In this document: positions 3,440 to 64,000 of the stretch, piece by piece
Position numbering within the stretch: the stretch's first letter is position 1
How the letters are laid out: each line of letters opens with the position of its first letter
Source of the DNA: Elusimicrobiota bacterium
GTDB lineage: Bacteria; Elusimicrobiota; Elusimicrobia; FEN-1173
Direction: 5' to 3'
DNA: 64,000 nt
Assembly: GCA_016715645.1 (NCBI GenBank)
Contig: JADJZR010000004.1
Coordinates: 37,269 to 101,268 of the forward strand
Position numbers and translations under genes: made by a program
The notes under the pieces: model-generated
What the model was told of the DNA's origin: nothing
The model's input: only the letters and a program-made list of their open reading frames with translations
Databases searched by the model: none

Positions 3440-5452
3440 CTACGCCATGGTTTCCGGGTCCACGTCGAGGTGAAGGGTTGTTCCTGCGGGCGGGGTGAAA
3501 GAACGGGCCAGACGGATCCAATGATCCATGGCGGAAAGCGGGGCTTTGATCACGGCTTGCCACTGGGCCCATCCCGCCTTCATTCGATGAAACGCCGGCG
3601 CCGGGCCCAACACGTCTCCTTCCACGGCGGGAACGTGCGATTGCATCCAACGAACAAATTGTTCCGCCGCGGATTCCGCGCCGCTCTCGGCGCGGGCGCG
3701 CACCACGGCATGGACCACCCGAGTGAACGGGGGATAGGCGGCTTCCCGTCGATAACTCAATTCGTGCTGGGCAAAAGATTCGTAGTTGCGTTCCAGAACG
3801 GCTTGAAGCGCGTAATGGTCCGGACTGGATGTTTGGATGATGACTTCCCCGGGCCGGTCGGACCGGCCCGCGCGGCCGGCCACTTGCATCAGCAACTGAA
3901 AGGTCCGTTCGGCCGCGCGAAAGTCCGGAAACGACAGGGACCGATCCGCGTCTAAAACACCCACCAAAGTTAAATTGGGAAAATCGTGGCCCTGGGCGAT
4001 CATTTGGGTCCCCACGATGATGTCGATTTTTCCGCTGAGAGCGTCGCGGTAAGCCTGTTCGTGGCCCTGACGGCCGCGGACCGCGTCGCGGTCCCACCGA
4101 AACAGGCGCGCGGATGGAAACAGAGCGGTCAGGTCGGCCGCTACCCGCTGGGTGCCCCGGCCCGACATTTTCAAAACTTCGCCACGGCATTTGGGGCATT
4201 TTTCCGACAGCGGTTCCCGGTGGTCGCAGGTGTGACAATGAAGAAACGGGCCCGCCTTCTCCCGATGGAGAACCAGGCTCACGTGGCACGCGGGGCATCT
4301 CGCCACCCATCCGCAGGCGCGGCATTCCACGTGGGTGCTGTAGCCGCGACGGTTTAAAAATAGCATGGATTGTTCTCCCCGAACCAACCGTTCCCTCACG
4401 GCGTTCACCAACACATCGGAAAAATACCAGCCCTCTTTTCGCCGGTCGACCAGCCGAACGGAAGGAAACGGTCGGTTTTCCACCCGTTGGGTAAGAACCA
4501 AACGGTCGATTTCCCCCGCCTGGGCCCGGGCGTGGGTTTCCAAAGACGGGGTGGCGCTTCCCAACAACAAAACGGCGCCGTGCAGCCGGGCTTTTTCTTC
4601 GGCGGTGTCGCGGGCGTGATAGTGGGGTGTGTTGTCTTGTTTGTAAGAGGGATCGTGTTCTTCGTCGATCACGATCAGGCCCAGGGGTGTCACGGGCAAA
4701 AACAGAGCTGAGCGGGGGCCCACCACCACCCGGGCCTCGCCCGACCGCACCCGTTGCCACACGCGCCACCGGTCGCCGAGGGCCATTTCGCTGTGCCACA
4801 CTTCCAGAGAGTCACCAAACCATCCACGCAGGCGGTCTTCCATTTGGGGGGTTAACCCAATTTCGGGCACCAACAACAGGGCGCCTTTCCCGGCGTCGAG
4901 GGCGGCGGTGATGGCTCGACGGTAAATTTCTGTTTTTCCCGACGCGGCCACGCCCTGTACCAACACGCGGCGGTGGACGTTTGCGGCCAGGGCGGGAAGA
5001 ATGAGATCCAGCGCCGCTGTTTGGCCCGCGGTGGGCTCAAACGGCGTGGGTGTTTCCCGGGTGCGGACGGGTTCTTTGGCCGGTCGTTGGGGCGGTTTGC
5101 GTTGGCCCAGGGGGAAAACCGTGAACAGCGCTTCGCCGGGCGAACAGGAGTAACGTCGACTCATCCAATGGGCCAAGGCCATGTCCCGGGGCTCCAAAAC
5201 CGGGTCGGGTTCCACGCAAGCGGCGATGTCTTTCAGTTTCGTCGTCGGCAACCCGCCGGCTTCGGGTTCGTGCAAACGGGCCACGACGCCCATTCGACGG
5301 GTTCCCTTGCCAAAAGGCGCCCAGACGCGATGACCCACTCGCACGAAGCCTTGCAAGTCGAGGGGAATGCGGTAATCGAAAAAACGGTCCAGGGGAACCG
5401 CAAACGCCACTTCGGCCAGCCGCGTGTCCAAATTATTTGTCGAGTTCGGCAC
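3440..5452 (-). CDS. priA: primosomal protein N' (replication restart helicase PriA)
   Basis: 670 aa with a Walker A GKT, a DEEH box, Cys-rich zinc-binding CxxC motifs and PriA-type 3' DNA-binding N-terminus. Confidence 0.9.
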   Translation of the reverse strand: MPNSTNNLDTRLAEVAFAVPLDRFFDYRIPLDLQGFVRVGHRVWAPFGKGTRRMGVVARLHEPEAGGLPTTKLKDIAACVEPDPVLEPRDMALAHWMSRRYSCSPGEALFTVFPLGQRKPPQRPAKEPVRTRETPTPFEPTAGQTAALDLILPALAANVHRRVLVQGVAASGKTEIYRRAITAALDAGKGALLLVPEIGLTPQMEDRLRGWFGDSLEVWHSEMALGDRWRVWQRVRSGEARVVVGPRSALFLPVTPLGLIVIDEEHDPSYKQDNTPHYHARDTAEEKARLHGAVLLLGSATPSLETHARAQAGEIDRLVLTQRVENRPFPSVRLVDRRKEGWYFSDVLVNAVRERLVRGEQSMLFLNRRGYSTHVECRACGWVARCPACHVSLVLHREKAGPFLHCHTCDHREPLSEKCPKCRGEVLKMSGRGTQRVAADLTALFPSARLFRWDRDAVRGRQGHEQAYRDALSGKIDIIVGTQMIAQGHDFPNLTLVGVLDADRSLSFPDFRAAERTFQLLMQVAGRAGRSDRPGEVIIQTSSPDHYALQAVLERNYESFAQHELSYRREAAYPPFTRVVHAVVRARAESGAESAAEQFVRWMQSHVPAVEGDVLGPAPAFHRMKAGWAQWQAVIKAPLSAMDHWIRLARSFTPPAGTTLHLDVDPETMA

Positions 5453-6245
5453 GAAGACTTTTCATGTCTTCCCAGACATCCTTTTTTAAGGACGGGTTGC
5501 GCAAAAGGGCCGCCGGATGATACGTGGGCAATAGTCGTGCGGTCAAACCGTCGATGCGGAAATCCACCCAACGGCCCCGAAATTTTGAAATGCCTTCCTC
5601 GGTTTTTAACAGGGCGCGGCCCGCCGTGTTGCCCAGTGTCACCAAAAACAACGGTTGAATGATGCGCAACTGGGCGAAAAGGAAGGGGGAACACACGTCC
5701 ATTTCCTCGGGCGTTGGCGGACGGTCGTTGCTCCGTTTGGTGTTGTCGGACGGATCGATCATGGGATGGCATTTGACCATGTTGGCGATGAAAACCCAGT
5801 TGACCGGTGGGTTCACGGGACCGCGCGATAAACCGGTGGCCGTCAGAATTTTGTCCAGCAGTTGGCCGGCGGGGCCCACGAAGGGTTCCCCTTGGCGATC
5901 TTCGGCATAGCCTGGTCCTTCCCCGATGAACACCACTTTGGCGTCGGGGTTGCCCACGCCAAACGCCAGGCGAATTCGCGACGCCCCCAACGGACATCGT
6001 TGACAATCGCCGATGTGATTTTGTAACCGGACCAACCGATCCGATTTCGAAAGGGATGGGTCGTCCACAAAAGCGTCGAGAACATTCGTCGGCGCCGCCG
6101 CGGCGGGGGGGAGAGAAGTGAGCCGCTCCGGCGGCTTATTCGAGGTGGGGGAGGTCCCCTTCCCGGACAGATACCGGGAACGTTTTTCAGCGACGGTTCG
6201 ACGGACAGCGGAGGTGAGCGCGGCCAACTCTTCTCTATTCGTCAT
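5433..6245 (-). CDS. uracil-DNA glycosylase, family 4 (4Fe-4S type)
   Basis: Contains the GEGPGxxEDxxGxPFVGxAGQLL motif and a CxxC...C signature typical of family 4 UDG, with a ~70 aa N-terminal extension. Confidence 0.85.
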   Translation of the reverse strand: MTNREELAALTSAVRRTVAEKRSRYLSGKGTSPTSNKPPERLTSLPPAAAAPTNVLDAFVDDPSLSKSDRLVRLQNHIGDCQRCPLGASRIRLAFGVGNPDAKVVFIGEGPGYAEDRQGEPFVGPAGQLLDKILTATGLSRGPVNPPVNWVFIANMVKCHPMIDPSDNTKRSNDRPPTPEEMDVCSPFLFAQLRIIQPLFLVTLGNTAGRALLKTEEGISKFRGRWVDFRIDGLTARLLPTYHPAALLRNPSLKKDVWEDMKSLRAELDK

Positions 6246-6888
6246 GGGATCGGATCATCTCCAGAAGGTTCGTTAAAACAAGGTCTGCCAAATTTTTTTT
6301 GTCTCCGGAAAACCGGTGGGGGGGTCGGCCTGCCTGAATTAAAATCGCCCGTGACCGAACCGCTCCCAGCGCGCGGGGGGAATTGGCCACAACCAGGTCC
6401 AAATTTTTTCCGCGCATTTTTTTCCGGGCGTTGGCCAAAAGATTATCGGATTCCAGGGCAAACCCCGCCAGTCGGGGAAACGCGCCCCGCCGTTCTTTTG
6501 ATAACGTGGCCAAAATATCGGGATTCGCCACCAACCGGATAACCGGTGCGCCGGGCCTCTTTTTCAATTTTGACCGAGAAACCGTTTGCGGACGCCAGTC
6601 GGCGACGGCCGCCGAACCAATGACGGCGTGGGCGCGACGGGCCGCTTTGCGCGTGGCGGCCAACATGTCCCGGGCGCTGACGACCCGAACCACCTGGACC
6701 CCTTTGGGATCCGGTAAATTCGTGGGACCCGCCACCAGGGTCACCCGTGCGCCTCGTTGGTGTGCGGCGGTGGCCAGAGCCCAGCCCATTCGCCCCGACG
6801 ACTCGTTGGAGAGATATCGCACAGGGTCCAATTTTTCCCGCGTGGGCCCCGCGGTGATGACCAGACGTCGGAAACTCCAGTCCTTCAC
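6235..6888 (-). CDS. coaB: phosphopantothenate-cysteine ligase domain (CoaB part of CoaBC)
   Basis: Motif LVITAGPTREKLDPVRYLSNESSGRMG. GTG start at 6888 lies three codons after the in-frame TAA that ends the CoaC domain. Confidence 0.8.
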   Translation of the reverse strand: MKDWSFRRLVITAGPTREKLDPVRYLSNESSGRMGWALATAAHQRGARVTLVAGPTNLPDPKGVQVVRVVSARDMLAATRKAARRAHAVIGSAAVADWRPQTVSRSKLKKRPGAPVIRLVANPDILATLSKERRGAFPRLAGFALESDNLLANARKKMRGKNLDLVVANSPRALGAVRSRAILIQAGRPPHRFSGDKKNLADLVLTNLLEMIRSHDE

Positions 6889-6897
6889 GATGGAGTG

Positions 6898-7440
6898 TTA
6901 CAGCGATCGGCTTAACGCGTCGACAATCGATTCCGGGTCCGCCATTCGGCCAAGACCTTGATCGCCGCTGGCCAGGGGACCCCGTTCAGGGCCCACCAAT
7001 CGGTATCCAAACCCACGAACCGTTTCGACGTTGCGTTGGGTGGCTGGGTGGGTCCACATGGGTTCGTGCATGGCGGGAGCCAAAATCACCGGCGCCCGGC
7101 TGGCCAAAATCAGGGAGGTCAGGAGGTCGTCGGCCGACCCGGCCGCGAGCCGGGCCAAGAGGTTGGCCGACGCCGGGGCGACCAAGATTGCCGCCGCGTT
7201 TTTGGCCAAGTCCAGATGGGGCATGGACCCCGATGGGAGGTCGAAAGGATCTGTGAGAGCCGGTCGGCCCGTGAGGGCCGTCAGGGTCAGCGGGGTGATA
7301 AACCGTTGCGCACCCGCTGTTAAAACAGCGGTAACCTGGGCGCCGGCCGCGGTTAACCGACGGGCCACGTCGGCCGCTTTGTAAGCGGCGACGCTTCCGG
7401 CCACGCCCAACACAATGTGCCGACCGCGCAACGGGTCCAT
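6898..7440 (-). CDS. coaC: phosphopantothenoylcysteine decarboxylase flavoprotein domain (CoaC part of CoaBC), terminated by an in-frame TAA
   Basis: Translation matches the CoaC domain. The TAA at 6898-6900 is in the same frame as the CoaB ORF and sits 9 nt upstream of it. Confidence 0.8.
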   Translation of the reverse strand: MDPLRGRHIVLGVAGSVAAYKAADVARRLTAAGAQVTAVLTAGAQRFITPLTLTALTGRPALTDPFDLPSGSMPHLDLAKNAAAILVAPASANLLARLAAGSADDLLTSLILASRAPVILAPAMHEPMWTHPATQRNVETVRGFGYRLVGPERGPLASGDQGLGRMADPESIVDALSRSL

Positions 7441-7449
7441 GGGGTCGGT

Positions 7450-20485: not shown

Positions 20486-22924
20486 ATGACGACTCACGAT
20501 TCGCTCCACGACGACATTAAAGAAATTCTTGTTCGCAACCTGCGCACCACCAGCGGCCGCACGCCCGAATACGCCTCCAAAAACGATTGGTACCAGGCCC
20601 TCGCCTTGACCGTGCGCGAGAAAGTCTATGGGTCCATGGATTACGTGATGGGCCGCTTAAGAAAACCCGACGGCCGGTTGGTGGCTTATTTGTCGGCGGA
20701 GTTTTTGCTGGGCCCGCATCTGCGCAACCACATCTTGAATTTAAACCTACGCCCCGCCGTGGAGGCGGCCATGGCGGCCCTGGGGCTGGACCTGGAACAA
20801 ATATTGGATCAGGAAGAAGAACCGGGTTTGGGCAATGGCGGGTTGGGTCGGTTGGCGGCGTGTTTTTTGGATTCTTTGGCCACGTTGGGCATTCCGGCCA
20901 AAGGATACGGGATCCGATACGAGTTCGGAATTTTTGACCAACAAATTCGCAACGGCGCCCAGGTGGAAGTGACCGACAAATGGCTCAAGCACGGCAACCC
21001 GTGGGAAATTCCCCATCCGGAAATTGCCTTCACCGTGGGGTTCGGCGGTCACACCGAAAACGTCCAAAACGAATCGGGCCGGTTGCGCACCCGTTGGGTG
21101 CCCAACTGGGTCGTCAACGGAGTGGCCTACGACACGCCCATGACGGGGTATCGATCGCCCAGCGCGGCGCTGTTGCGGTTGTGGAAAGCGGAAGCGGTGG
21201 AATCGTTCGATTTTGCCGCCTTCAACAGCGGCGACTACTATCGTGCGGTGCACGACAAAATCACCTCCGAAAATATTTCCAAAGTTCTCTATCCCAACGA
21301 CGACGCGCCGGAAGGCAAACGGCTTCGGCTGGAACAACAGTATTTTTTCGTCTCGTGCACGCTCCAGGATTTGATTCGGGTCAACATGGCCCTCAAAAAC
21401 CCGCTCACGCAGTTTCATAAAAAGTTTGCCGTTCAACTCAACGACACCCACCCCAGCGTGGCCGTGGCGGAACTGATGCGCCTGTTCGTGGACGTGCACG
21501 GCATGGAATGGGACGAATCGTGGAACATCGTCCGGGAAACGTTCGGTTACACCAACCACACGCTGATGCCGGAAGCCCTGGAGAAATGGCCCGTGGGCCT
21601 GTTTGGGTCTCTTTTACCGAGACACCTGGAAATTATTTATGAAATCAACCGCCGTTTCATCGCGGATGTTCGCCGGGATCACCCCGGGGACGAGGATTTG
21701 GTCCGCCGGGTGTCGTTGATCGACGAAGGGGGGGAACGCTATGTCCGCATGGCCCATCTGGCCGCCGTGGGAAGCCGGGCCATCAACGGCGTCGCTCAAC
21801 TGCACACCGACCTGCTTAAAAAAGATGTTCTGCGGGATTTTCATTATTTGATGCCGGAAAAAATCGTTAACATCACCAACGGCGTAACGCCCCGGCGGTT
21901 TGTGGCCTCGGCCAATCCCGGGTTGGCGGCATTAATCAGCGAAGCCATCGGAGATTCCTGGATTCTTCGGTCGGAACAAGAGTTGCCCCGCCTGGCGCCG
22001 TTCGCGTCCGACGCCGGTTTTCGCGCCCGGTGGAAAGAGGTCAAAACGCGCAACAAACGGCGATTGGCCGGGCTGATTTTGGACCGCACGGGCGTGACCG
22101 TCAACCCCGACAGTTTGTTTGACGTCCAGGTCAAACGCATTCACGAATACAAACGCCAACACTTAAACGCGCTGCATGTTCTTCGGCGGTATTTGGATTT
22201 GAAAGATAATCCGCGGTTGTCTCCGGTTCCCCGAACGTTTGTTTTCGGCGGGAAAGCGGCTCCGGGCTATTTCATGGCGAAATTGATGATCCGGTTCATC
22301 AATGCCGTGGCCGATACGGTCAACCACGACCCCGCCACCCGCGACACCTATCGGGTGGTGTTTTTTCCCGACTTCAACGTGAAATACGGAGAGGCGATTT
22401 ATCCGGCGGCGGAACTGTCTGAACAAATTTCCACGGCCGGCAAAGAAGCGTCGGGAACCGGCAACATGAAGTTCACGCTCAACGGCGCGCTCACCATCGG
22501 CACCTTGGACGGCGCCAACGTGGAAATCCGCGACGCCGTGGGTCACGACCATTTTTTCCTGTTCGGAAAAACCGCGCCGGAAGTGGACGCTCTGTGGCGG
22601 GCGGGATACAACCCTCGCCGGTTTTACGAGGCGGATCCCCGGTTGTCGGAAGTGTTGGATTTCGTGTCGTCGGGGTTTTTATCCCCCCACGATCGCGGCC
22701 TGTTCCGACCTTTGGTGGACACGTTGTTGTACCGCGACCCGTTTCTGGTCATGGCGGATTTCGCCGCTTATGTGGACGCCCAAGACGCCGTGAACCAAAC
22801 TTACGCCGACCCGTCCCTCTGGGGCGAGAAATCCATCCTCAACGTGGCCGGAGCCGGCCGGTTTTCGTCCGACCGCTCCATCCGCGATTACGCCCGGGAG
22901 ATCTGGAAGATTAAGCTTACTTGA
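20486..22924 (+). CDS. glgP: glycogen/alpha-glucan phosphorylase (GT35)
   Basis: 812 aa with the PLP-site motif EASGTGNMKFTLNGALTIGTLDGANVEI and overall GT35 collinearity. Confidence 0.9.
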   Translation: MTTHDSLHDDIKEILVRNLRTTSGRTPEYASKNDWYQALALTVREKVYGSMDYVMGRLRKPDGRLVAYLSAEFLLGPHLRNHILNLNLRPAVEAAMAALGLDLEQILDQEEEPGLGNGGLGRLAACFLDSLATLGIPAKGYGIRYEFGIFDQQIRNGAQVEVTDKWLKHGNPWEIPHPEIAFTVGFGGHTENVQNESGRLRTRWVPNWVVNGVAYDTPMTGYRSPSAALLRLWKAEAVESFDFAAFNSGDYYRAVHDKITSENISKVLYPNDDAPEGKRLRLEQQYFFVSCTLQDLIRVNMALKNPLTQFHKKFAVQLNDTHPSVAVAELMRLFVDVHGMEWDESWNIVRETFGYTNHTLMPEALEKWPVGLFGSLLPRHLEIIYEINRRFIADVRRDHPGDEDLVRRVSLIDEGGERYVRMAHLAAVGSRAINGVAQLHTDLLKKDVLRDFHYLMPEKIVNITNGVTPRRFVASANPGLAALISEAIGDSWILRSEQELPRLAPFASDAGFRARWKEVKTRNKRRLAGLILDRTGVTVNPDSLFDVQVKRIHEYKRQHLNALHVLRRYLDLKDNPRLSPVPRTFVFGGKAAPGYFMAKLMIRFINAVADTVNHDPATRDTYRVVFFPDFNVKYGEAIYPAAELSEQISTAGKEASGTGNMKFTLNGALTIGTLDGANVEIRDAVGHDHFFLFGKTAPEVDALWRAGYNPRRFYEADPRLSEVLDFVSSGFLSPHDRGLFRPLVDTLLYRDPFLVMADFAAYVDAQDAVNQTYADPSLWGEKSILNVAGAGRFSSDRSIRDYAREIWKIKLT

Positions 22925-37901: not shown

Positions 37902-39593
37902 TTAAAGCGTGTCGAAGTAGGCCGCCATTTCGCGGGCGGTTCGGTCCACGCTGACATCGGGCGTCACGGCCAAGGCCGCCCTCAGAAGCGCCGCCCGTTG
38001 AACGGGGTTTTGGAAGGCTGTGTTAAAATCTTTCAATGCTTTCAAAAACGAGTCCACGTCCGGTTGGTCGTTGGAGTAGCTGACGCCGTACCCGTTGGCT
38101 TGCCGGCCAGGTGGGACGGCTCCCTCAAAAAACACGAACTCAGGCACGGCTCCATCCGGATTGGCGATGACGGCGCCGCCGTTCATTTGGGCTTTCATGA
38201 ACCCCGTGGCCGACGCTTCCCGGCCGTCGTCGGACAACATCACCGATCCGTCGGCTCCGTGGAACAACCGGGGCGCCTCCAGCACGTTGTAATTGTGCAG
38301 GAAGATCACTCGTTCGCCCAATTCTTCGTCCCGGTTTAAAAATTCCACCAACCCGTACACCATTTTTTCCGAGACATTGTCGCGCTGGTAAATACGTCCT
38401 CCCACCACCAACACCACCTGAGTGTCCAAGAACGCCTTGCGCCGGACCGGGTCGTGAAAAATGCGTTCCAAAATGTCCAGCCGTTTGTAGCTGGTGATGC
38501 GCCGCGTCCAGAGCGCGACCGGATGGGCGCGCATTTTTTTGGCCCAATGGGGCCACAGCAGGGCTCGGCGCCACAGCCATTCCAGAAATTCGCCTTTCAG
38601 TTTTTCTTTCACCGCAATCAAGTCCTTGTCCGAAAGCGAGGCCGATCCCGCGTAGGCCGGATGTTGCCACAGAGCGACGCTGACGCCGTTGGTCACGTGT
38701 TGAATTTTGGTCGCCTGCGATCTCAGGGAAGGCATGGCGCGCATCACGCGGGCGTGTTTTTCCGCCACGCCGAACGCCCCGTTGGAAATGCCGATCAGCA
38801 TTTGGGTAATGTCCACCCGCCCGTCTCTCAGGAACGGGGAATAGGCGGTGGGGCTCATCCGTGTAAGTTCCAACACCTCTTTCGGCCAGATGGGATGGGC
38901 GTACTCCAGGGGTGTGTGATCGTTAAACACGGTTTTAGCGTCGGCGAAAAGCGGGTCGGTGGCCAAAGCGTCGTTGACCAGTGTGGGATGGCCGAAGAGG
39001 GTGGGCGTTTCGCTCATGACAACCATGTCCGGTTTAAACCCGATGGCTTTGGCCAACGCTAAGGCGCCTCGGCCCACCAACCAGCTTTGGAGCAAACGTT
39101 GCCGTTCGGCCCAGGCGTTGGTGTCGAAGGTGTTGGGAGGCGCGTCTTCGGCGCAGGGGTAAACCACGTCGGTGATCTCGGGGCAATCCAAAAAGTAGAC
39201 CGGCGCCATGCCGAAAAAAGCTTCCCAAACTTTCACGTTAACCGTCCGTCCGTCGAACAGGGGGAGGTCCAACGTGAATTCGGCTTTTGTTAATATTTCT
39301 CGAAGCGCTCGGCCGGCTGACACCCGCTCCAAGATGAGGTGGTTCCAGTCGTGCCACGCTTGGCTCCAGACGGTGTTGTAGAGGAGAGAAACGCCCACCA
39401 CATCGACGCCCTGTTCTTTTTGGGCGATGACCCGTTCGCGCAGGAGGGGCCCGATGCCGCCCACCGACGTGGACATCGCGGCCGCTTGGGCGGCTTCCAG
39501 GCCGAACTTTTTTTCCACGGCCGAGAGAATCTCCGGTGTGAGGGCCATTTCCATAGCGACTTCCAGGATGCGGCGCGGGGCGGCGGGGTTCAT
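37902..39593 (-). CDS. alpha-glucan phosphorylase-family (GT35-like) protein, second copy
   Basis: N-terminal SxGGIGxL...GVSLLY pattern characteristic of the short alpha-glucan phosphorylases. 563 aa. Confidence 0.5.
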   Translation of the reverse strand: MNPAAPRRILEVAMEMALTPEILSAVEKKFGLEAAQAAAMSTSVGGIGPLLRERVIAQKEQGVDVVGVSLLYNTVWSQAWHDWNHLILERVSAGRALREILTKAEFTLDLPLFDGRTVNVKVWEAFFGMAPVYFLDCPEITDVVYPCAEDAPPNTFDTNAWAERQRLLQSWLVGRGALALAKAIGFKPDMVVMSETPTLFGHPTLVNDALATDPLFADAKTVFNDHTPLEYAHPIWPKEVLELTRMSPTAYSPFLRDGRVDITQMLIGISNGAFGVAEKHARVMRAMPSLRSQATKIQHVTNGVSVALWQHPAYAGSASLSDKDLIAVKEKLKGEFLEWLWRRALLWPHWAKKMRAHPVALWTRRITSYKRLDILERIFHDPVRRKAFLDTQVVLVVGGRIYQRDNVSEKMVYGLVEFLNRDEELGERVIFLHNYNVLEAPRLFHGADGSVMLSDDGREASATGFMKAQMNGGAVIANPDGAVPEFVFFEGAVPPGRQANGYGVSYSNDQPDVDSFLKALKDFNTAFQNPVQRAALLRAALAVTPDVSVDRTAREMAAYFDTL

Positions 39594-59040: not shown

Positions 59041-59071
59041 CTTGACAGCCACTAGGGATGGTGGTGTAAGA
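59041..59071 (+). promoter_or_regulatory. candidate sigma70-type promoter upstream of nrdR (TTGACA...TAAGAT); a second extended -10 TGgTATAAT lies at 59140-59150
   Basis: TTGACA at 59041-59046 and TGTAAGAT 17-19 nt downstream. TGGTATAAT at 59142-59150 precedes an AGGAGG at 59155-59160. Confidence 0.35.
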
Positions 59072-59189
59072 TACGCCTTGCCACAAGCCCTGGCCGCAAC
59101 GAAGAGGTCGGGGACACCCAAACAACAACACGAACTACAAGATGTGGTATAATCCCAGGAGGAAGACTACCACCAATTGTGTGAGACCT

Positions 59190-59783
59190 ATGCGTTGCCC
59201 TACCTGCGATCACCCGGATGACCGTGTTCTCGACAGCCGACCCTTGGAAACAGCGTCGGTGATTCGTCGTCGCCGCGTTTGCCTGGGATGCGGCAAACGG
59301 TTCACCACGTACGAGCGGGTGGAATCAACGCCTTTGATGGTGGTCAAACGGGACAACCGGCGGGAACCGTTCAACCGGGACAAGATGCGCGAGGGTGTTC
59401 AGCGGGCCTGCCAAAAGCGTCCCATTTCGCCGGCCATGATCGAAAAGTTGGTGGCCGAGGTGGAATACAGTTTGCAGGATTTTGTGTTGGAAGTGCCTTC
59501 CGTGGAAATTGGCCAGCGTTTGTTGAAACGTCTTTATGATCTGGACGCGGTGGCGTATGTGCGGTTCGCGTCAGTTTATCGGTCGTTCGGTAACGTGGAC
59601 GACTTTATGTCGGAGTTGAACCACTTGAAAAAAGATTATGAAAAACGCGCGCGGTTAAAAGCGACGTTGGGCGCCGCCAAAGAGGCGAGCCTGCCCCGGG
59701 ATCCGGCGGATCCCCGATTCGCATCCGATCGCCCCGTCGAGTCGTCCCCGGTTTCCGGGGCGGACCGACTGGTCAAAGTTTGA
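59190..59783 (+). CDS. nrdR: transcriptional repressor NrdR, with a ~45 aa C-terminal extension
   Basis: N-terminal zinc ribbon MRCPTCDHPDDRVLDSR...CLGCGKRFTTYER followed by an ATP-cone domain. Confidence 0.85.
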   Translation: MRCPTCDHPDDRVLDSRPLETASVIRRRRVCLGCGKRFTTYERVESTPLMVVKRDNRREPFNRDKMREGVQRACQKRPISPAMIEKLVAEVEYSLQDFVLEVPSVEIGQRLLKRLYDLDAVAYVRFASVYRSFGNVDDFMSELNHLKKDYEKRARLKATLGAAKEASLPRDPADPRFASDRPVESSPVSGADRLVKV

Positions 59784-59790
59784 TTCTTCT

Positions 59791-62403
59791 ATGAATGAGA
59801 GAGGTCAGCCCATGAATCCCGTCCACACCCCAATCCGCACCAACGGCGCCCAGGCGCCGGAGTCCGTTCCCCCCCTTGCCGTGGGGAGCCCTCGTCCCAC
59901 ATCGGCCCGTCCGCCGGTTCGCCTGAGCGAAAACCAGCGAAAAGTGATTGCCGACAAATACTTACGCAACGATCCGTCCCCCGAAGTGTGGCTGGACCGG
60001 GTGGCCGCGAACATTGCGTTGGCCGAGCTATTGCACGCGCCGGAATCCGACGGTTGGCATTTATGGGACGGGGTTAAACGGCGGGTGATCGATGTGGCCA
60101 CGCGCAAAACCCACAAGTCGCGCATGAATTTGTTGCACCATGGGATTATCCAATCGGATGAACGGGACAAAAATTTCGCCGTGTTTTTGGGCAACCTGCG
60201 CCGGGCCGTTGCCGAGGTCCCGGAAGCCCGGGTTCTCATGGAAGAGTGGCGCGACCGTTTTTACGGGATGATGGCGCGGTTCGACTTTTTGCCCAATTCC
60301 CCGACGCTCATGAACGCGGGTCGGGAACTTCAGCAGTTGTCGGCCTGTTACGTGTTGCCGGTGCCGGATTCCATGGAAGGCATCGCCGACGCGCTCAAAG
60401 CCCAGGCGCTGATTCACAAGTCCGGCGGGGGCACGGGGTTTTCGTTCCAGCGGGTTCGGCCGTCAGGCGACAGCGTGAAATCCACCAAAGGCACGGCGTC
60501 CGGGGCCATCAGCTTTATGCAAATTTTCGACAAGATGACTGACGTGGTCAAACAGGGCGGAACCCGGCGGGGCGCCAACATGGGCATTTTGCCCTACTGG
60601 CATCCGGAAATTGAAGATTTCATCAACATGAAAACGAAACCCGGCGTCATGGAAAACTTCAATGTGTCCGTGACGGTCGACGGTAAATTCATGGAAGCGG
60701 CTCAAAAGGGCGAGGAATACGATTTGCTCAATCCCCGCACTCTTCAGCCCACCGGTAAGCGGGTGAACGCCCGGGACGTGTTCGAGAAAATGGTGGACGG
60801 CGCCTGGAAATCGGGCGATCCCGGCATTATTTTCATCGACCGCATCAACAACAGCCCTTCCAACCCCACGCCCCACCTGGGCCAAATCGAAAGCACGAAT
60901 CCCTGCGGCGAGCAGCCGTTGCTTCCCAACGAGCCGTGCAACCTAGGGTCCATCAACCTCGCTAACTTTGTCGAAGGGGAAGTGGGCCATGGAAAAATGA
61001 ATTGGGACCGGCTCGGCAAAACAGTGGCTTTGGCGGTGCGGTTTCTGGACGACGTCATCGAGGTCAACAACTATCCTCTCTCGCAAATCGAAGAGTTGTC
61101 CAAGGGGAACCGTCGGATCGGTTTGGGCGTGATGGGCTGGGCGGAAGCTCTGGTGAAAATGGGCGTCCCGTATGATTCCGACGAATCATTGAAAGCCGCC
61201 GGCGAGGTCATGGGGTTCGTGAACACGAAAGCCATGGAAGCCTCCGAGCTGTTGGCGGAAGAACGGGGGGTGTTCCCGAACTGGAAAGGCTCTATTTTCG
61301 ATAAGGACAGCCCCCATTTCCGAGGGGAAGAGCATCTGCCGCGCCATTGCGCCCGCACGACGATCGCGCCCACGGGAACGATCGGTTTAGCGGCGGGACT
61401 GCAGGGGGCGGGCATCGAGCCGTTCTTTGCGATCACCTACACCCGCTACAACGCAAAAGCGTTGGCCGCCCTGAAAAAAGGCGAGAAACCCGCCGACGGC
61501 GACGTGTTTTACGAGGTCAACCCGTTGTTTCGTGAAGTGGCGCGCCGCAACAATTATTTCGGTTTATCCGAAACGGACCTGTGGAAAAAAGTGGAGGCCA
61601 ACCACAAGTCGGTGCGGGGGATCAAAGAAATACCCGAGGCGGTGCAGAAATTGTTCGCCACCAGCCACGACGTGCCGGTGCCGTTTCACGTTCAAATCCA
61701 GGCGGCGTTTCAAACGCACACGGACAACGCGGTGTCCAAAACCATCAACATGCCCCACACCGCCACCCGCGAGGACGTCAAAAACGCCTACCGCCAGTCC
61801 TACGAAATGGGGTGCAAAGGCATTACCATTTACCGGGACGGCTCCAAGAGCCAGCAGGTGTTGAACCTGGGCGCCGCGGGCGCGCCGGCCGAAAAACCCA
61901 AAACCCGGGACGCGTCCCGGGGAATGTCGTCGGAGTATTACGAGATCCGCACGGGCCACGGCGGCTTGCACGTTCACATTGATTACGACGAAACGGGTCC
62001 GTATCGGTTGTTCACCAGCCTGTCGCCGCTGGGGACGGACATTTCGGGGCTCACGTCGGTGGTGGGCATCATGATTTCCAAGTATTTGGAAGCGGGCGGG
62101 GATCCCAAACGGATTCTGAAACATCTCAATTCCGTCAAAGGCGACCGGCCGTTCGGGTTCGGGGCCCAACGGGTGGACTCGATTCCCCACGCCATCGCCA
62201 TTGCCCTTCGCACCCATCTTCAAAAGCACGGAAAAATGGACGCCCCCGCTCCCGCCGCGTCGGACACCAAAAGCGGCGGTTTGGAATTGTGGGACCGATC
62301 GTCGGCCCTTTATTGCCCGGACTGTTTCTCGGCCAACGTGGCCCAGCAGAGCGGATGCACCGGCGTGACGTGCTTCGACTGCGGCCATTCGGAGTGTTCC
62401 TGA
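59791..62403 (+). CDS. nrdJ: class II (adenosylcobalamin-dependent) ribonucleotide reductase
   Basis: Active-site [12 protein letters not shown], a ..SKTINMPH.. block and a C-terminal Cys4 ribbon (CPDCFS...CFDCGHSEC). A second possible start at 59812 has a better RBS. Confidence 0.85.
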
Positions 62404-62960
62404 TGGCGGTCAAGTCCGACCGTTGGATCCGGCGCATGGCGCGGGAGCGCGGCCTGATTGAGCCGTTCGTGGAAGCCCAAAAACGCGAGGGCGTGATTTC
62501 CTTCGGGCTCTCCAGCTATGGGTATGACATGCGCGTGGGAACGCGGTTTAAAGTGTCTCGGCCCGGGGGATCGGGTGTGATGGACCCCAAACAACCGGCC
62601 GCGGGGGTGTTTGAAGACGTCCACACGGACACGTTCCTGGAGATTCCGCCTCACGCCATCGCCTTGGGCCAGTCGGTGGAATATTTTCGCATTCCACGCA
62701 ACGTGGTCACGGCGGCGTTCGGAAAAAGCACCTATGCCCGTTGCGGGTTGGTGGTCAACATCACGCCCTTTGAACCGGAATGGGAGGGGTTCGTGACGTT
62801 GGAAATGTCAAACACCACGCCGTTTCCGCTCCGGGTGTATGCCAACGAGGGGATCGCCCAGATCTTGTTTTTCGAATCCGACGAGGTGTGCGAGGTCTCG
62901 TACGCCGATCGGAAAGGGAAATATCAGGGCCAGACGGCGATCACCCTCGGGAAAATATGA
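62403..62960 (+). CDS. dcd: dCTP deaminase
   Basis: dUTPase-fold dCTP deaminase motifs (..[10 protein letters not shown].., ..[20 protein letters not shown]..). ATG overlaps the nrdJ stop. Confidence 0.85.
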
Positions 62961-64000
62961 CACCGATCGAGATCATCGAAAAACATCCCGGGGCTTTGGC
63001 CGACATTGCCGACCTGGAAGACAAGGGGCACCGCATTGTGGATGTGTTGGGCGGAGACGTGGTGCCCACCGACGCCACCCGGGATTTTGTGTCGGCGCTT
63101 CGCGACGAACGTCGGGAGAGTTTTTACAGTGAAGTGTTGCATTACCTCACGTCCGAGAGATATCCGGAAGCCCAGGCCCAGGTTTTATGGAAAGAAATCT
63201 TGGACCATAAATTTTTAATGAGCGAGCGGCTGGGTCGAAACGTGGGGATTCGCGTGTCGGCTTTTGACTATTTGCTCAACGTGCGCAAACTGCTGATTGC
63301 CCCGCGGATTATCAATTCCCATGACTTTCGTCGGACAGTTCGGTTATCGCGGACGGACGCGTTGACAGGCCTTTACAACCGGCGCTACTTTTTGGAACAT
63401 ACCGCCAAAGTGTTGGAAGCGGCAGAGCATGTGAAAGCCCCGGTGTCTCTCCTGATGGCGGACCTGGACAACTTCAAACCGTTCAATGACGATCACGGCC
63501 ACCAAGCGGGGGATTTGTTGATTCAGGAAATCGCCCGGCTGATTCGCGGGTGCGTTCGCGCGTCGGATATGGTGACGCGCTACGGCGGCGATGAATTCGC
63601 TTTGCTTCTTCCCAAGGCCACCAAGGCCGAAGCCGAGGGCGTGGCTGAAAAAATTTGCCGGCAAATTGAAGAAAATTGCCAATCGGTGGGTGTCACCATC
63701 AGCCTGGGTTTGGCCCAGTTCCCGGTGGACGCCACGTCCCGGGAAGATTTGATTGCCGCGGCCGACGAACTGCTTTATCGGGCCAAAGAGTTTGGCGGCA
63801 ACCAAGTGTCGTTGTATCGACCGATCCGGTTCCACTACACGGACAAGGACGGACAGGTCACACAGGTGTCGGTGGTCGGAGACTTTAACAATTGGTCCGG
63901 CCGATCTCACGGATTGGTGCGGCAGTCTTCGGGAAAAGACTGGGAAACCACCCTGCCGCTGAAAGCGGGGCGTTACCGGTATAAGTTTTTGCTCAACCAA
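62957..64000 (+). CDS. GGDEF diguanylate cyclase fused to a C-terminal CBM48/AMPK-beta-like glycogen-binding domain (3' end outside window; own translation, absent from ORF track)
   Basis: ATG at 62957 overlaps the dcd stop (ATGA). N-terminal ~130 aa of unknown type, then a GGDEF domain ([14 protein letters not shown]...[12 protein letters not shown]...[12 protein letters not shown]), then [46 protein letters not shown], matching the glycogen-binding E-set pattern VxVxGxFNxW...W...L.pGxYxYKFxVDG. Confidence 0.75.

Follow-up and report, generated by a model that had tools for sequence, protein, structure and literature searches.

Can a bacterial enzyme that makes the second messenger cyclic di-GMP (c-di-GMP) take its cue from the carbon store of the cell? 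The question is raised by the right-hand end of a 64,000-nt stretch of DNA from an Elusimicrobiota bacterium (contig JADJZR010000004.1), hereafter the window, in whose coordinates all positions are given. Here a diguanylate cyclase gene, dgc, occupies positions 62957..64000 of the plus strand and encodes what is, judging from its sequence, a soluble, cytoplasmic, three-domain diguanylate cyclase: a helical N-terminal domain is followed by a GGDEF catalytic domain and by a C-terminal carbohydrate-binding module (CBM) of the CBM48/AMPK-beta type. Proteins of this build are conserved across the phylum Elusimicrobiota, and the conserved neighborhood of their genes is nrdR and nucleotide metabolism, not glycogen genes. 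The proposal examined below, i.e., that a cytoplasmic cyclase would bind glycogen or alpha-glucan and that this binding would set its location or activity, seems to us to stand at about even chances.

The reading frame starts with the ATG at 62957-62959, which overlaps the TGA of the preceding gene, dcd (62958-62960), as ATGA, and remains free of stops for 348 codons up to the window end, where, as the initial annotation had noticed, the gene runs off the sequence. The closest ortholog, P0001 (375 aa, 94% identical to the window protein and encoded on a syntenic contig with 89% DNA identity), indicates that about 27 C-terminal residues lie beyond the window end, so 348 of the ~375 codons are present. 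The frame is further supported by the Pfam and NCBIfam matches of its product. A minus-strand open reading frame (ORF) at 63344-64000 (218 aa, TTG start) was rejected as a gene, since the well-supported coding sequence of the GGDEF domain and the CBM encloses it completely; most likely, it is a shadow ORF in G+C-rich DNA. The dgc protein contains neither a signal peptide nor a membrane or other hydrophobic segment (the maximal 19-residue Kyte-Doolittle score is 1.0). Hence, a ligand of its CBM would be intracellular, most plausibly glycogen, and an extracytoplasmic ligand was rejected on the same grounds. The AlphaFold2 model of P0001, built on an alignment of 47 family members (mean predicted local distance difference test score, pLDDT, 89), displays three parts: the helical N-domain (residues ~17-132), the alpha/beta GGDEF domain and a seven-stranded beta module (residues 288-374).

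The catalytic domain (aa 133-286; 63353..63814, plus strand) is of the GGDEF type. Pfam GGDEF (PF00990) matches aa 133-283 with E = 7.9e-43 (146.5 bits vs. a cut-off of 23.8), confirming the domain and the RYGGDEF motif of the initial annotation, and NCBIfam TIGR00254 matches with E = 8e-45 (152.5 bits vs. 37.4). The best 50 Foldseek matches of the full-length model in the PDB are all GGDEF structures, so this search is uninformative on the CBM and the N-domain; the active cyclases matched by fold include WspR, PleD, GcbC and DgcR, with E values down to 4e-16. The GGDEF active-site motif proper spans aa 210-214 (63584..63598, plus strand). Across the 47 sequences of the family alignment, which reaches down to 37% identity, D169, D171, K174, N177, D186, R208, GGDE and K277 are invariant; D169/D171 form the metal-binding acidic DxD pair, N177 and D186 are base-binding, and K277 is equivalent to PleD K442. 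The residues by which a cyclase was recognized here, GG(D/E)EF and the equivalents of PleD D327, N335, D344 and K442, are thus all in place, and the enzyme is probably active. Five residues before the motif lies an RxxD I-site (R201-A-S-D204; 63557..63568, plus strand), intact in 26 of the 47 members, namely in the Elusimicrobia-type clade including the window protein, and lost in the Endomicrobiia clade. Such a site marks a product-inhibited subset of GGDEF proteins and does not define the family.

In comparison with the helical-stalk cyclases WspR, PleD, DgcR and DgcB, the protein shares the GGDEF fold (E about 1e-15, 30-43% identity), the active-site residues, the RxxD I-site and an N-terminal helix running straight into the GGDEF domain. 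Unlike them, it has no sensor of the receiver, PAS, GAF or membrane type, its input domain being a DUF4032-like helical bundle; it also carries the C-terminal CBM48 and a glycine at the position of PleD R446 (see below).

The C-terminal module (aa 288-348 in the window, 63818..64000, plus strand; 288-375 in the orthologs) is predicted to be a complete AMPK-beta/CBM48 domain retaining the principal sugar-contact residues. The initial annotation had noted a CBM48-like pattern after the GGDEF domain, and both of its elements are indeed found in the window protein, the FNNW motif (63884-63895, plus strand) and the GRYRYKF (YKF) motif. The window copy passes the cut-offs of two Pfam models in spite of being cut by the window end: AMPK1_CBM (PF16561; aa 299-346, 30.0 bits vs. 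26.8) and CBM_48 (PF02922; aa 302-344, 28.8 bits vs. 22.4). The full-length P0001 scores higher with both (35.9 and 30.7 bits, respectively), and the NCBIfam models of GlgB branching enzymes match weakly through their CBM48 region. In the 47-sequence set, the Pfam models GGDEF and AMPK1_CBM are matched above the cut-off by all 47 members, whereas DUF4032 is matched by 40 and CBM_48 by 36, so the model match by which the initial annotation proposed to check the module is shared by the whole set. Its further concern, that the similarity might be local and not that of an independent, intact beta-sandwich, is answered by the P0001 model with a confidently predicted fold of ~88 aa: seven beta-strands over residues 288-374, with pLDDT of at least 93. 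The last GGDEF strand and the first CBM strand are only a residue or two apart in this model, and pLDDT is 94-97 across the junction (residues 271-300), whereas it falls to 55 in the loop that precedes the stalk helix entering the GGDEF domain; the CBM is thus modeled as rigidly attached to the GGDEF domain, without a linker.

The 88-aa module alone, compared with the sequences of the PDB, matches best an N-terminal CBM of the Thermococcus pullulanase TK-PUL (5ot1_A, residues 87-178, E = 3e-10, including a C-terminal DGYGG motif), followed by the CBMs of AMPK beta2 (E = 2e-6) and beta1 (E = 1e-4), and also GlgB. A profile of the module collected 14,691 representatives at E <= 0.001 from 1.84 billion representatives searched. 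Of the ten top matches scanned, four carry a GH13 alpha-amylase catalytic domain and the others are tandem AMPK1_CBM proteins; because of these GH13 relatives, the subtype can be placed, at the level of sequence similarity, among the alpha-glucan-binding modules. The CBMs of TK-PUL and the GH13 proteins target hydrolases to alpha-glucan and often occur in tandem, unlike the single copy on a signaling enzyme described here. The profile matches listed (P0121-P0270) mostly contain 3-19 tandem copies, including a recurring ~480-aa four-copy class, and there are giant proteins of 5,000-7,400 aa among them; dominated by such tandem-copy proteins, this listing is uninformative on other signaling enzymes with the same module.

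For the mapping of contact residues, 74 family members were aligned to AMPK beta1; the numbering of the beta1 sequence used fits the known positions, and the sequence agrees with the beta2 segments from the PDB comparison. The Trp and Lys positions on which the initial annotation had made sugar binding depend are kept: W100 of beta1 is W in 74/74 members (window W313), K126 is K in 74/74 (window K343), and W133 is W in 73/74 (W351, past the window end). At L146, the family displays a conservative change (F in 69, Y in 4, L in 1), and G147 is a nearly invariant G. In AMPK beta1, glycogen binding is abolished by W100G and K126Q and weakened by W133L and G147R (PMC6274970).

The resemblance to the AMPK beta CBM (CBM48; PDB 1z0m, 2f15 and 4y0g) thus comprises membership of the same Pfam family and the FNNW, YKF and QW motifs with the three key equivalents. 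It also extends to the setting, since in both cases the module sits on a signaling enzyme and not on a glycoside hydrolase; the AMPK module relays the glycogen status to the catalytic subunit, and glycogen inhibits AMPK through it (PMC2642990). The differences are that the dgc module forms a single polypeptide with a nucleotide cyclase (a fusion in cis), whereas that of AMPK belongs to a separate scaffold subunit of the kinase, and that the host is bacterial; glycogen binding is here a prediction.

The N-terminal domain (aa 1-132; 62957..63352, plus strand) is all-helical, and its last helix enters the GGDEF domain. The initial annotation had described it as an uncharacterized domain of ~130 aa; the domain stands, with the nuance that it is apparently akin to the last third of DUF4032 (PF13224), the match being confined to profile positions 107-161 of 163. 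Against a cut-off of 23.8, the full protein scores 22.6 bits and the isolated N-domain 24.8 bits, and 26 of 27 relatives match the model, the best with 3.5e-10. Eleven residues of the domain are invariant and may form a site for a ligand or a partner; no nucleotide-binding fold is recognizable in the domain. A search of a 5.8-billion-protein database with the N-domain profile returned only 13 further proteins, including stand-alone DUF4032 proteins of ~150 aa, and no informative new architectures; DUF4032 was not mentioned in the literature searched. The domain can be described as a conserved putative input domain without a known structural relative.

The same N-domain and GGDEF domain occur in sister proteins (P0078-P0091; Planctomycetota where a taxon label is given), with 40-46% identity over these two domains and the same invariant HK...LGRNVG...DY motif. 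In the place of the CBM48 they have either PilZ, a c-di-GMP-binding domain, or nothing. It follows that the C-terminal slot is variable; on this comparison, it is an exchangeable accessory position, which in Elusimicrobiota is occupied by the CBM48.

Among 5.8 billion proteins searched, ~77 clusters (at 90% identity) of 368-383 aa share the precomputed architecture of the dgc protein. Of these, 74 are near full length and contain a motif of the FNNW type (F[ND][NRG]W); those of the 74 that bear a taxon label all come from Elusimicrobiota, i.e., from metagenome-assembled genomes of Elusimicrobia or Endomicrobiia. The domain order (helical N-domain, GGDEF, C-terminal CBM48) is the same throughout. 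The suggestion of the initial annotation that the architecture is not a described family holds in that no description of a GGDEF-CBM48 fusion was found in the literature searched; it does not hold for the sequences themselves, as orthologs are already present in the NCBI and JGI databases, annotated only as ‘diguanylate cyclase’. The sole fusion of a carbohydrate enzyme to GGDEF found in this literature is one GH126-GGDEF protein (PMC7479077), and the search for Elusimicrobia together with c-di-GMP and glycogen gave nothing. The dgc family is a real, conserved and previously undiscussed version of an enzyme class that is itself very well known. Since sensor domains of many kinds are found fused to GGDEF domains, one more partner is not surprising in itself.

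Upstream of dgc, the genes named by the initial annotation were recovered by Pfam as stated, all on the plus strand: nrdR (59190..59783; Zn_ribbon_NrdR and ATP-cone matches), which opens the string and whose MRCP start is conserved in the orthologous loci, nrdJ for a class II ribonucleotide reductase (59791..62403; Ribonuc_red_lgC, E = 2e-123, plus TSCPD) and dcd for dCTP deaminase (62403..62960; DCD, E = 2.5e-32). With a gap of 7 nt between nrdR and nrdJ and overlaps of 1 nt between nrdJ and dcd and of 4 nt between dcd and dgc, dgc is the fourth gene of a tightly packed, overlapping string. In front of nrdR there is a promoter-like sequence, TTGACA-N19-TAAGAT (59043..59075, plus strand). The spacer between its -35 and -10 elements holds the palindrome CCACTAGGGATGGTGG (CCAC-N8-GTGG; 59049-59064), and a weaker repeat, CCACAAGCCCTGGCCG, lies ~32 bp downstream; promoter, palindrome and repeat are all kept in two close relatives (L001 at 6093 and L086 at 2850). 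The hallmark of the NrdR regulon is a promoter with 16-bp NrdR boxes in tandem, and in a comparison by eye CCACTAGGGATGGTGG and CCACAAGCCCTGGCCG look like a candidate pair of this kind. The operon position suggests co-expression of dgc with deoxyribonucleotide and guanine-nucleotide metabolism.

The adjacency, initially given as a matter of position only, acquires more weight from 11 ortholog loci, which together with the window make a sample of 12. In nine of them (the window, L001, L086, L089, L092, L004, L085, L090 and L091), nrdR lies upstream of dgc on the same strand, and this link is kept in both classes, between whose lineages protein identity is ~40%. Five Elusimicrobia-type loci, the window included, have the order nrdR-nrdJ-dcd-dgc, and in the four Elusimicrobia-type orthologs dgc is followed by a GuaB3-family relative of IMP dehydrogenase (TIGR01304, 447 bits), guaA and pur genes. 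In the four Endomicrobiia-type loci, nrdR is followed directly by dgc, the two genes being separated or overlapping by 4 to 22 nt, and then come a conserved 60-aa ORF and genes for a kinase-like protein, dCMP deaminase and NDK. Of the other three loci, without nrdR, one keeps only carB upstream and two have unrelated contexts.

Several side observations were made in these loci. The 60-aa ORF (L004 9182-9364, L085 9172-9354, L090 9168-9350 and L091 9144-9326) has a precomputed Pfam match in none of the four loci, and the L004 copy has no NCBIfam match; the ORF is absent from the lineage of the window, where guaB3 is found instead. The nrdJ ortholog of L086, a relative with 85% identity, encodes 1279 aa with Intein_splicing and LAGLIDADG matches (3603-7442), compared with 870 aa and no intein in the window. 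In L087 (the locus of P0040, 9110-12276), one of the two unrelated contexts, the gene next to dgc encodes a Fer4_16 protein, and the second gene downstream of dgc a 7TM-GAF-GAF-HD protein scoring 149 bits against a model of response-regulator c-di-GMP phosphodiesterases; the cyclase and this HD-type phosphodiesterase may form a local synthase/hydrolase pair.

The glycogen-related genes of the window fared differently. The initial annotation had pointed to glgP and to a second GT35-like phosphorylase as a meaningful context. The former is real (20486-22924; 1058 bits in Pfam), and the source genome can process glycogen. The latter (37902-39593, minus strand) yields partial matches to Phosphorylase (profile positions 506-581) and Glyco_transf_5 and stays below the NCBIfam cut-offs (100.8 vs. 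191.7); it may represent a divergent alpha-glucan phosphorylase or a glycosyltransferase-like protein. Both lie 24-40 kb away from dgc (glgP 40 kb), and the proximity of glgP was rejected as evidence for a glycogen link, not being conserved in the orthologous loci.

If the proposal were right, the CBM would bind the cell’s own glycogen or malto-oligosaccharide chains, and the cyclase would be concentrated or re-oriented by attachment to the glycogen particle, which is multivalent. GGDEF domains act as dimers in c-di-GMP synthesis; because they must pair and the CBM is rigidly attached, clustering or re-orientation of the enzyme would be the expected consequence of glycogen binding. In this way, the state of the carbon store would be reflected in the output of c-di-GMP or, at the least, in the place of its synthesis, while the helical N-domain would provide a dimerizing stalk and a second input, and transcription shared with an NrdR-controlled nucleotide operon would tie the enzyme level to the nucleotide supply.

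Several points weigh against this picture, beginning with the module itself. In the alignment to AMPK beta1, the equivalent of T148 is G in 72/74 members and that of N150 is C in 68/74, so the sugar site differs from that of AMPK. There are also a nearly invariant, family-specific C-terminal motif, DGFGGxCS, which sets the module apart from the AMPK one, and an invariant W329, neither with an assigned role in sugar binding. Together with the absence of glycogen genes within 8 kb of dgc in any of the 11 ortholog loci, i.e., of a genomic link to glycogen, these features could mean that the CBM48-like module is no longer carbohydrate-binding and has become a protein-protein, oligomerization or intramolecular regulatory domain packed on the GGDEF domain, comparable to the AMPK CBM, which also docks on the kinase domain; the very short and confidently modeled junction fits such packing. 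We nevertheless consider the loss of sugar binding rather unlikely: the three residues with the greatest effect on glycogen binding in AMPK persist in 73-74 of 74 members across ~40% sequence divergence (PMC6274970), and the nearest solved and profile relatives, including TK-PUL with its shared DGYGG motif, are modules of alpha-glucan-active enzymes. Even with binding granted, the effect of glycogen might be either activation or inhibition, and the co-transcription of dgc with nrdR is predicted from spacing alone.

The catalytic domain raises a doubt of its own. The arginine of the ‘GRN’ motif in PleD (R446), which contacts phosphate, is replaced by Gly in 43 of the 47 members (G281 in the window, codon 63797-63799), compared with R or K in 68 of 71 domains of a background comprising at least 71 unrelated GGDEF genes, collected by a scan of contigs for the generic GGDEF pattern, with no dgc orthologs among the matches listed. 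This change could lower or alter cyclase activity. The fifth residue of the motif varies as well (F in 30, M in 10, L in 4 and I in 3 members), and the RxxD c-di-GMP site is present in the Elusimicrobia-type clade, so the GGDEF domain might be catalytically impaired and the protein a GTP or c-di-GMP receptor or scaffold on glycogen instead of a synthase. This we regard as improbable, since degenerate receptors usually lose several of the residues that are invariant here (GGDE, the metal-binding Asp pair, the base-binding Asn and Asp, K174, R208 and K277); the profile hidden Markov model score is high (146 bits), and the nearly invariant R275, close to K277, might compensate for the missing arginine. 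The neighborhood speaks for yet another emphasis, in which nucleotide supply is the main logic: the gene would be a member of the NrdR regulon, the N-domain would sense a nucleotide-related signal, perhaps at its invariant residues, and the CBM would be a mere anchor. The nrdR adjacency kept in both divergent classes, the nucleotide-metabolism genes on either side and the candidate NrdR box argue for it. Against it stand the three of 12 loci lacking nrdR, the want of a recognizable nucleotide-binding fold in the N-domain and the general experience that nrdR adjoins unrelated genes in many bacteria. As the main logic, nucleotide supply is unlikely in our estimation, and it is compatible with glycogen binding in any case.

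Returning to the cyclase that binds glycogen, its most far-reaching version would present the dgc protein as a glycogen-sensing second-messenger synthase, a functional analog of the AMPK sensor, co-expressed with an NrdR-controlled ribonucleotide reductase operon and integrating the carbon store, the N-domain signal and the nucleotide supply into c-di-GMP signaling; the attachment of its CBM48 to glycogen particles would switch or localize the synthesis of c-di-GMP. This version can be offered tentatively and is, in our opinion, more doubtful than the proposal itself.

The coupling of second messengers to glycogen stores in bacteria is poorly understood. The sole direct link found in the literature searched is that of Streptomyces venezuelae, where GlgX, an enzyme that debranches glycogen, is under the direct control of c-di-GMP (PMC9530166). 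Both cases would represent a direct molecular connection of c-di-GMP and glycogen, with no sequence relationship beyond the CBM48 present in GlgX; there c-di-GMP binds a glycogen enzyme, whereas here the synthase carries a module of the glycogen-binding type. If the proposal is true, the link would operate in reverse, the store informing the messenger, and the parallel to AMPK, a master energy kinase that glycogen regulates by way of the same module, would be striking. Small, soluble and cytoplasmic domains make the hypothesis easy to test, and the AMPK-type module, the novel N-domain and the nrdR linkage together make a good, cheaply testable lead. The unexpected and deeply conserved linkage between nrdR and the gene of a c-di-GMP synthase, in turn, hints at a tie of c-di-GMP to the supply of DNA precursors in this little-studied phylum.

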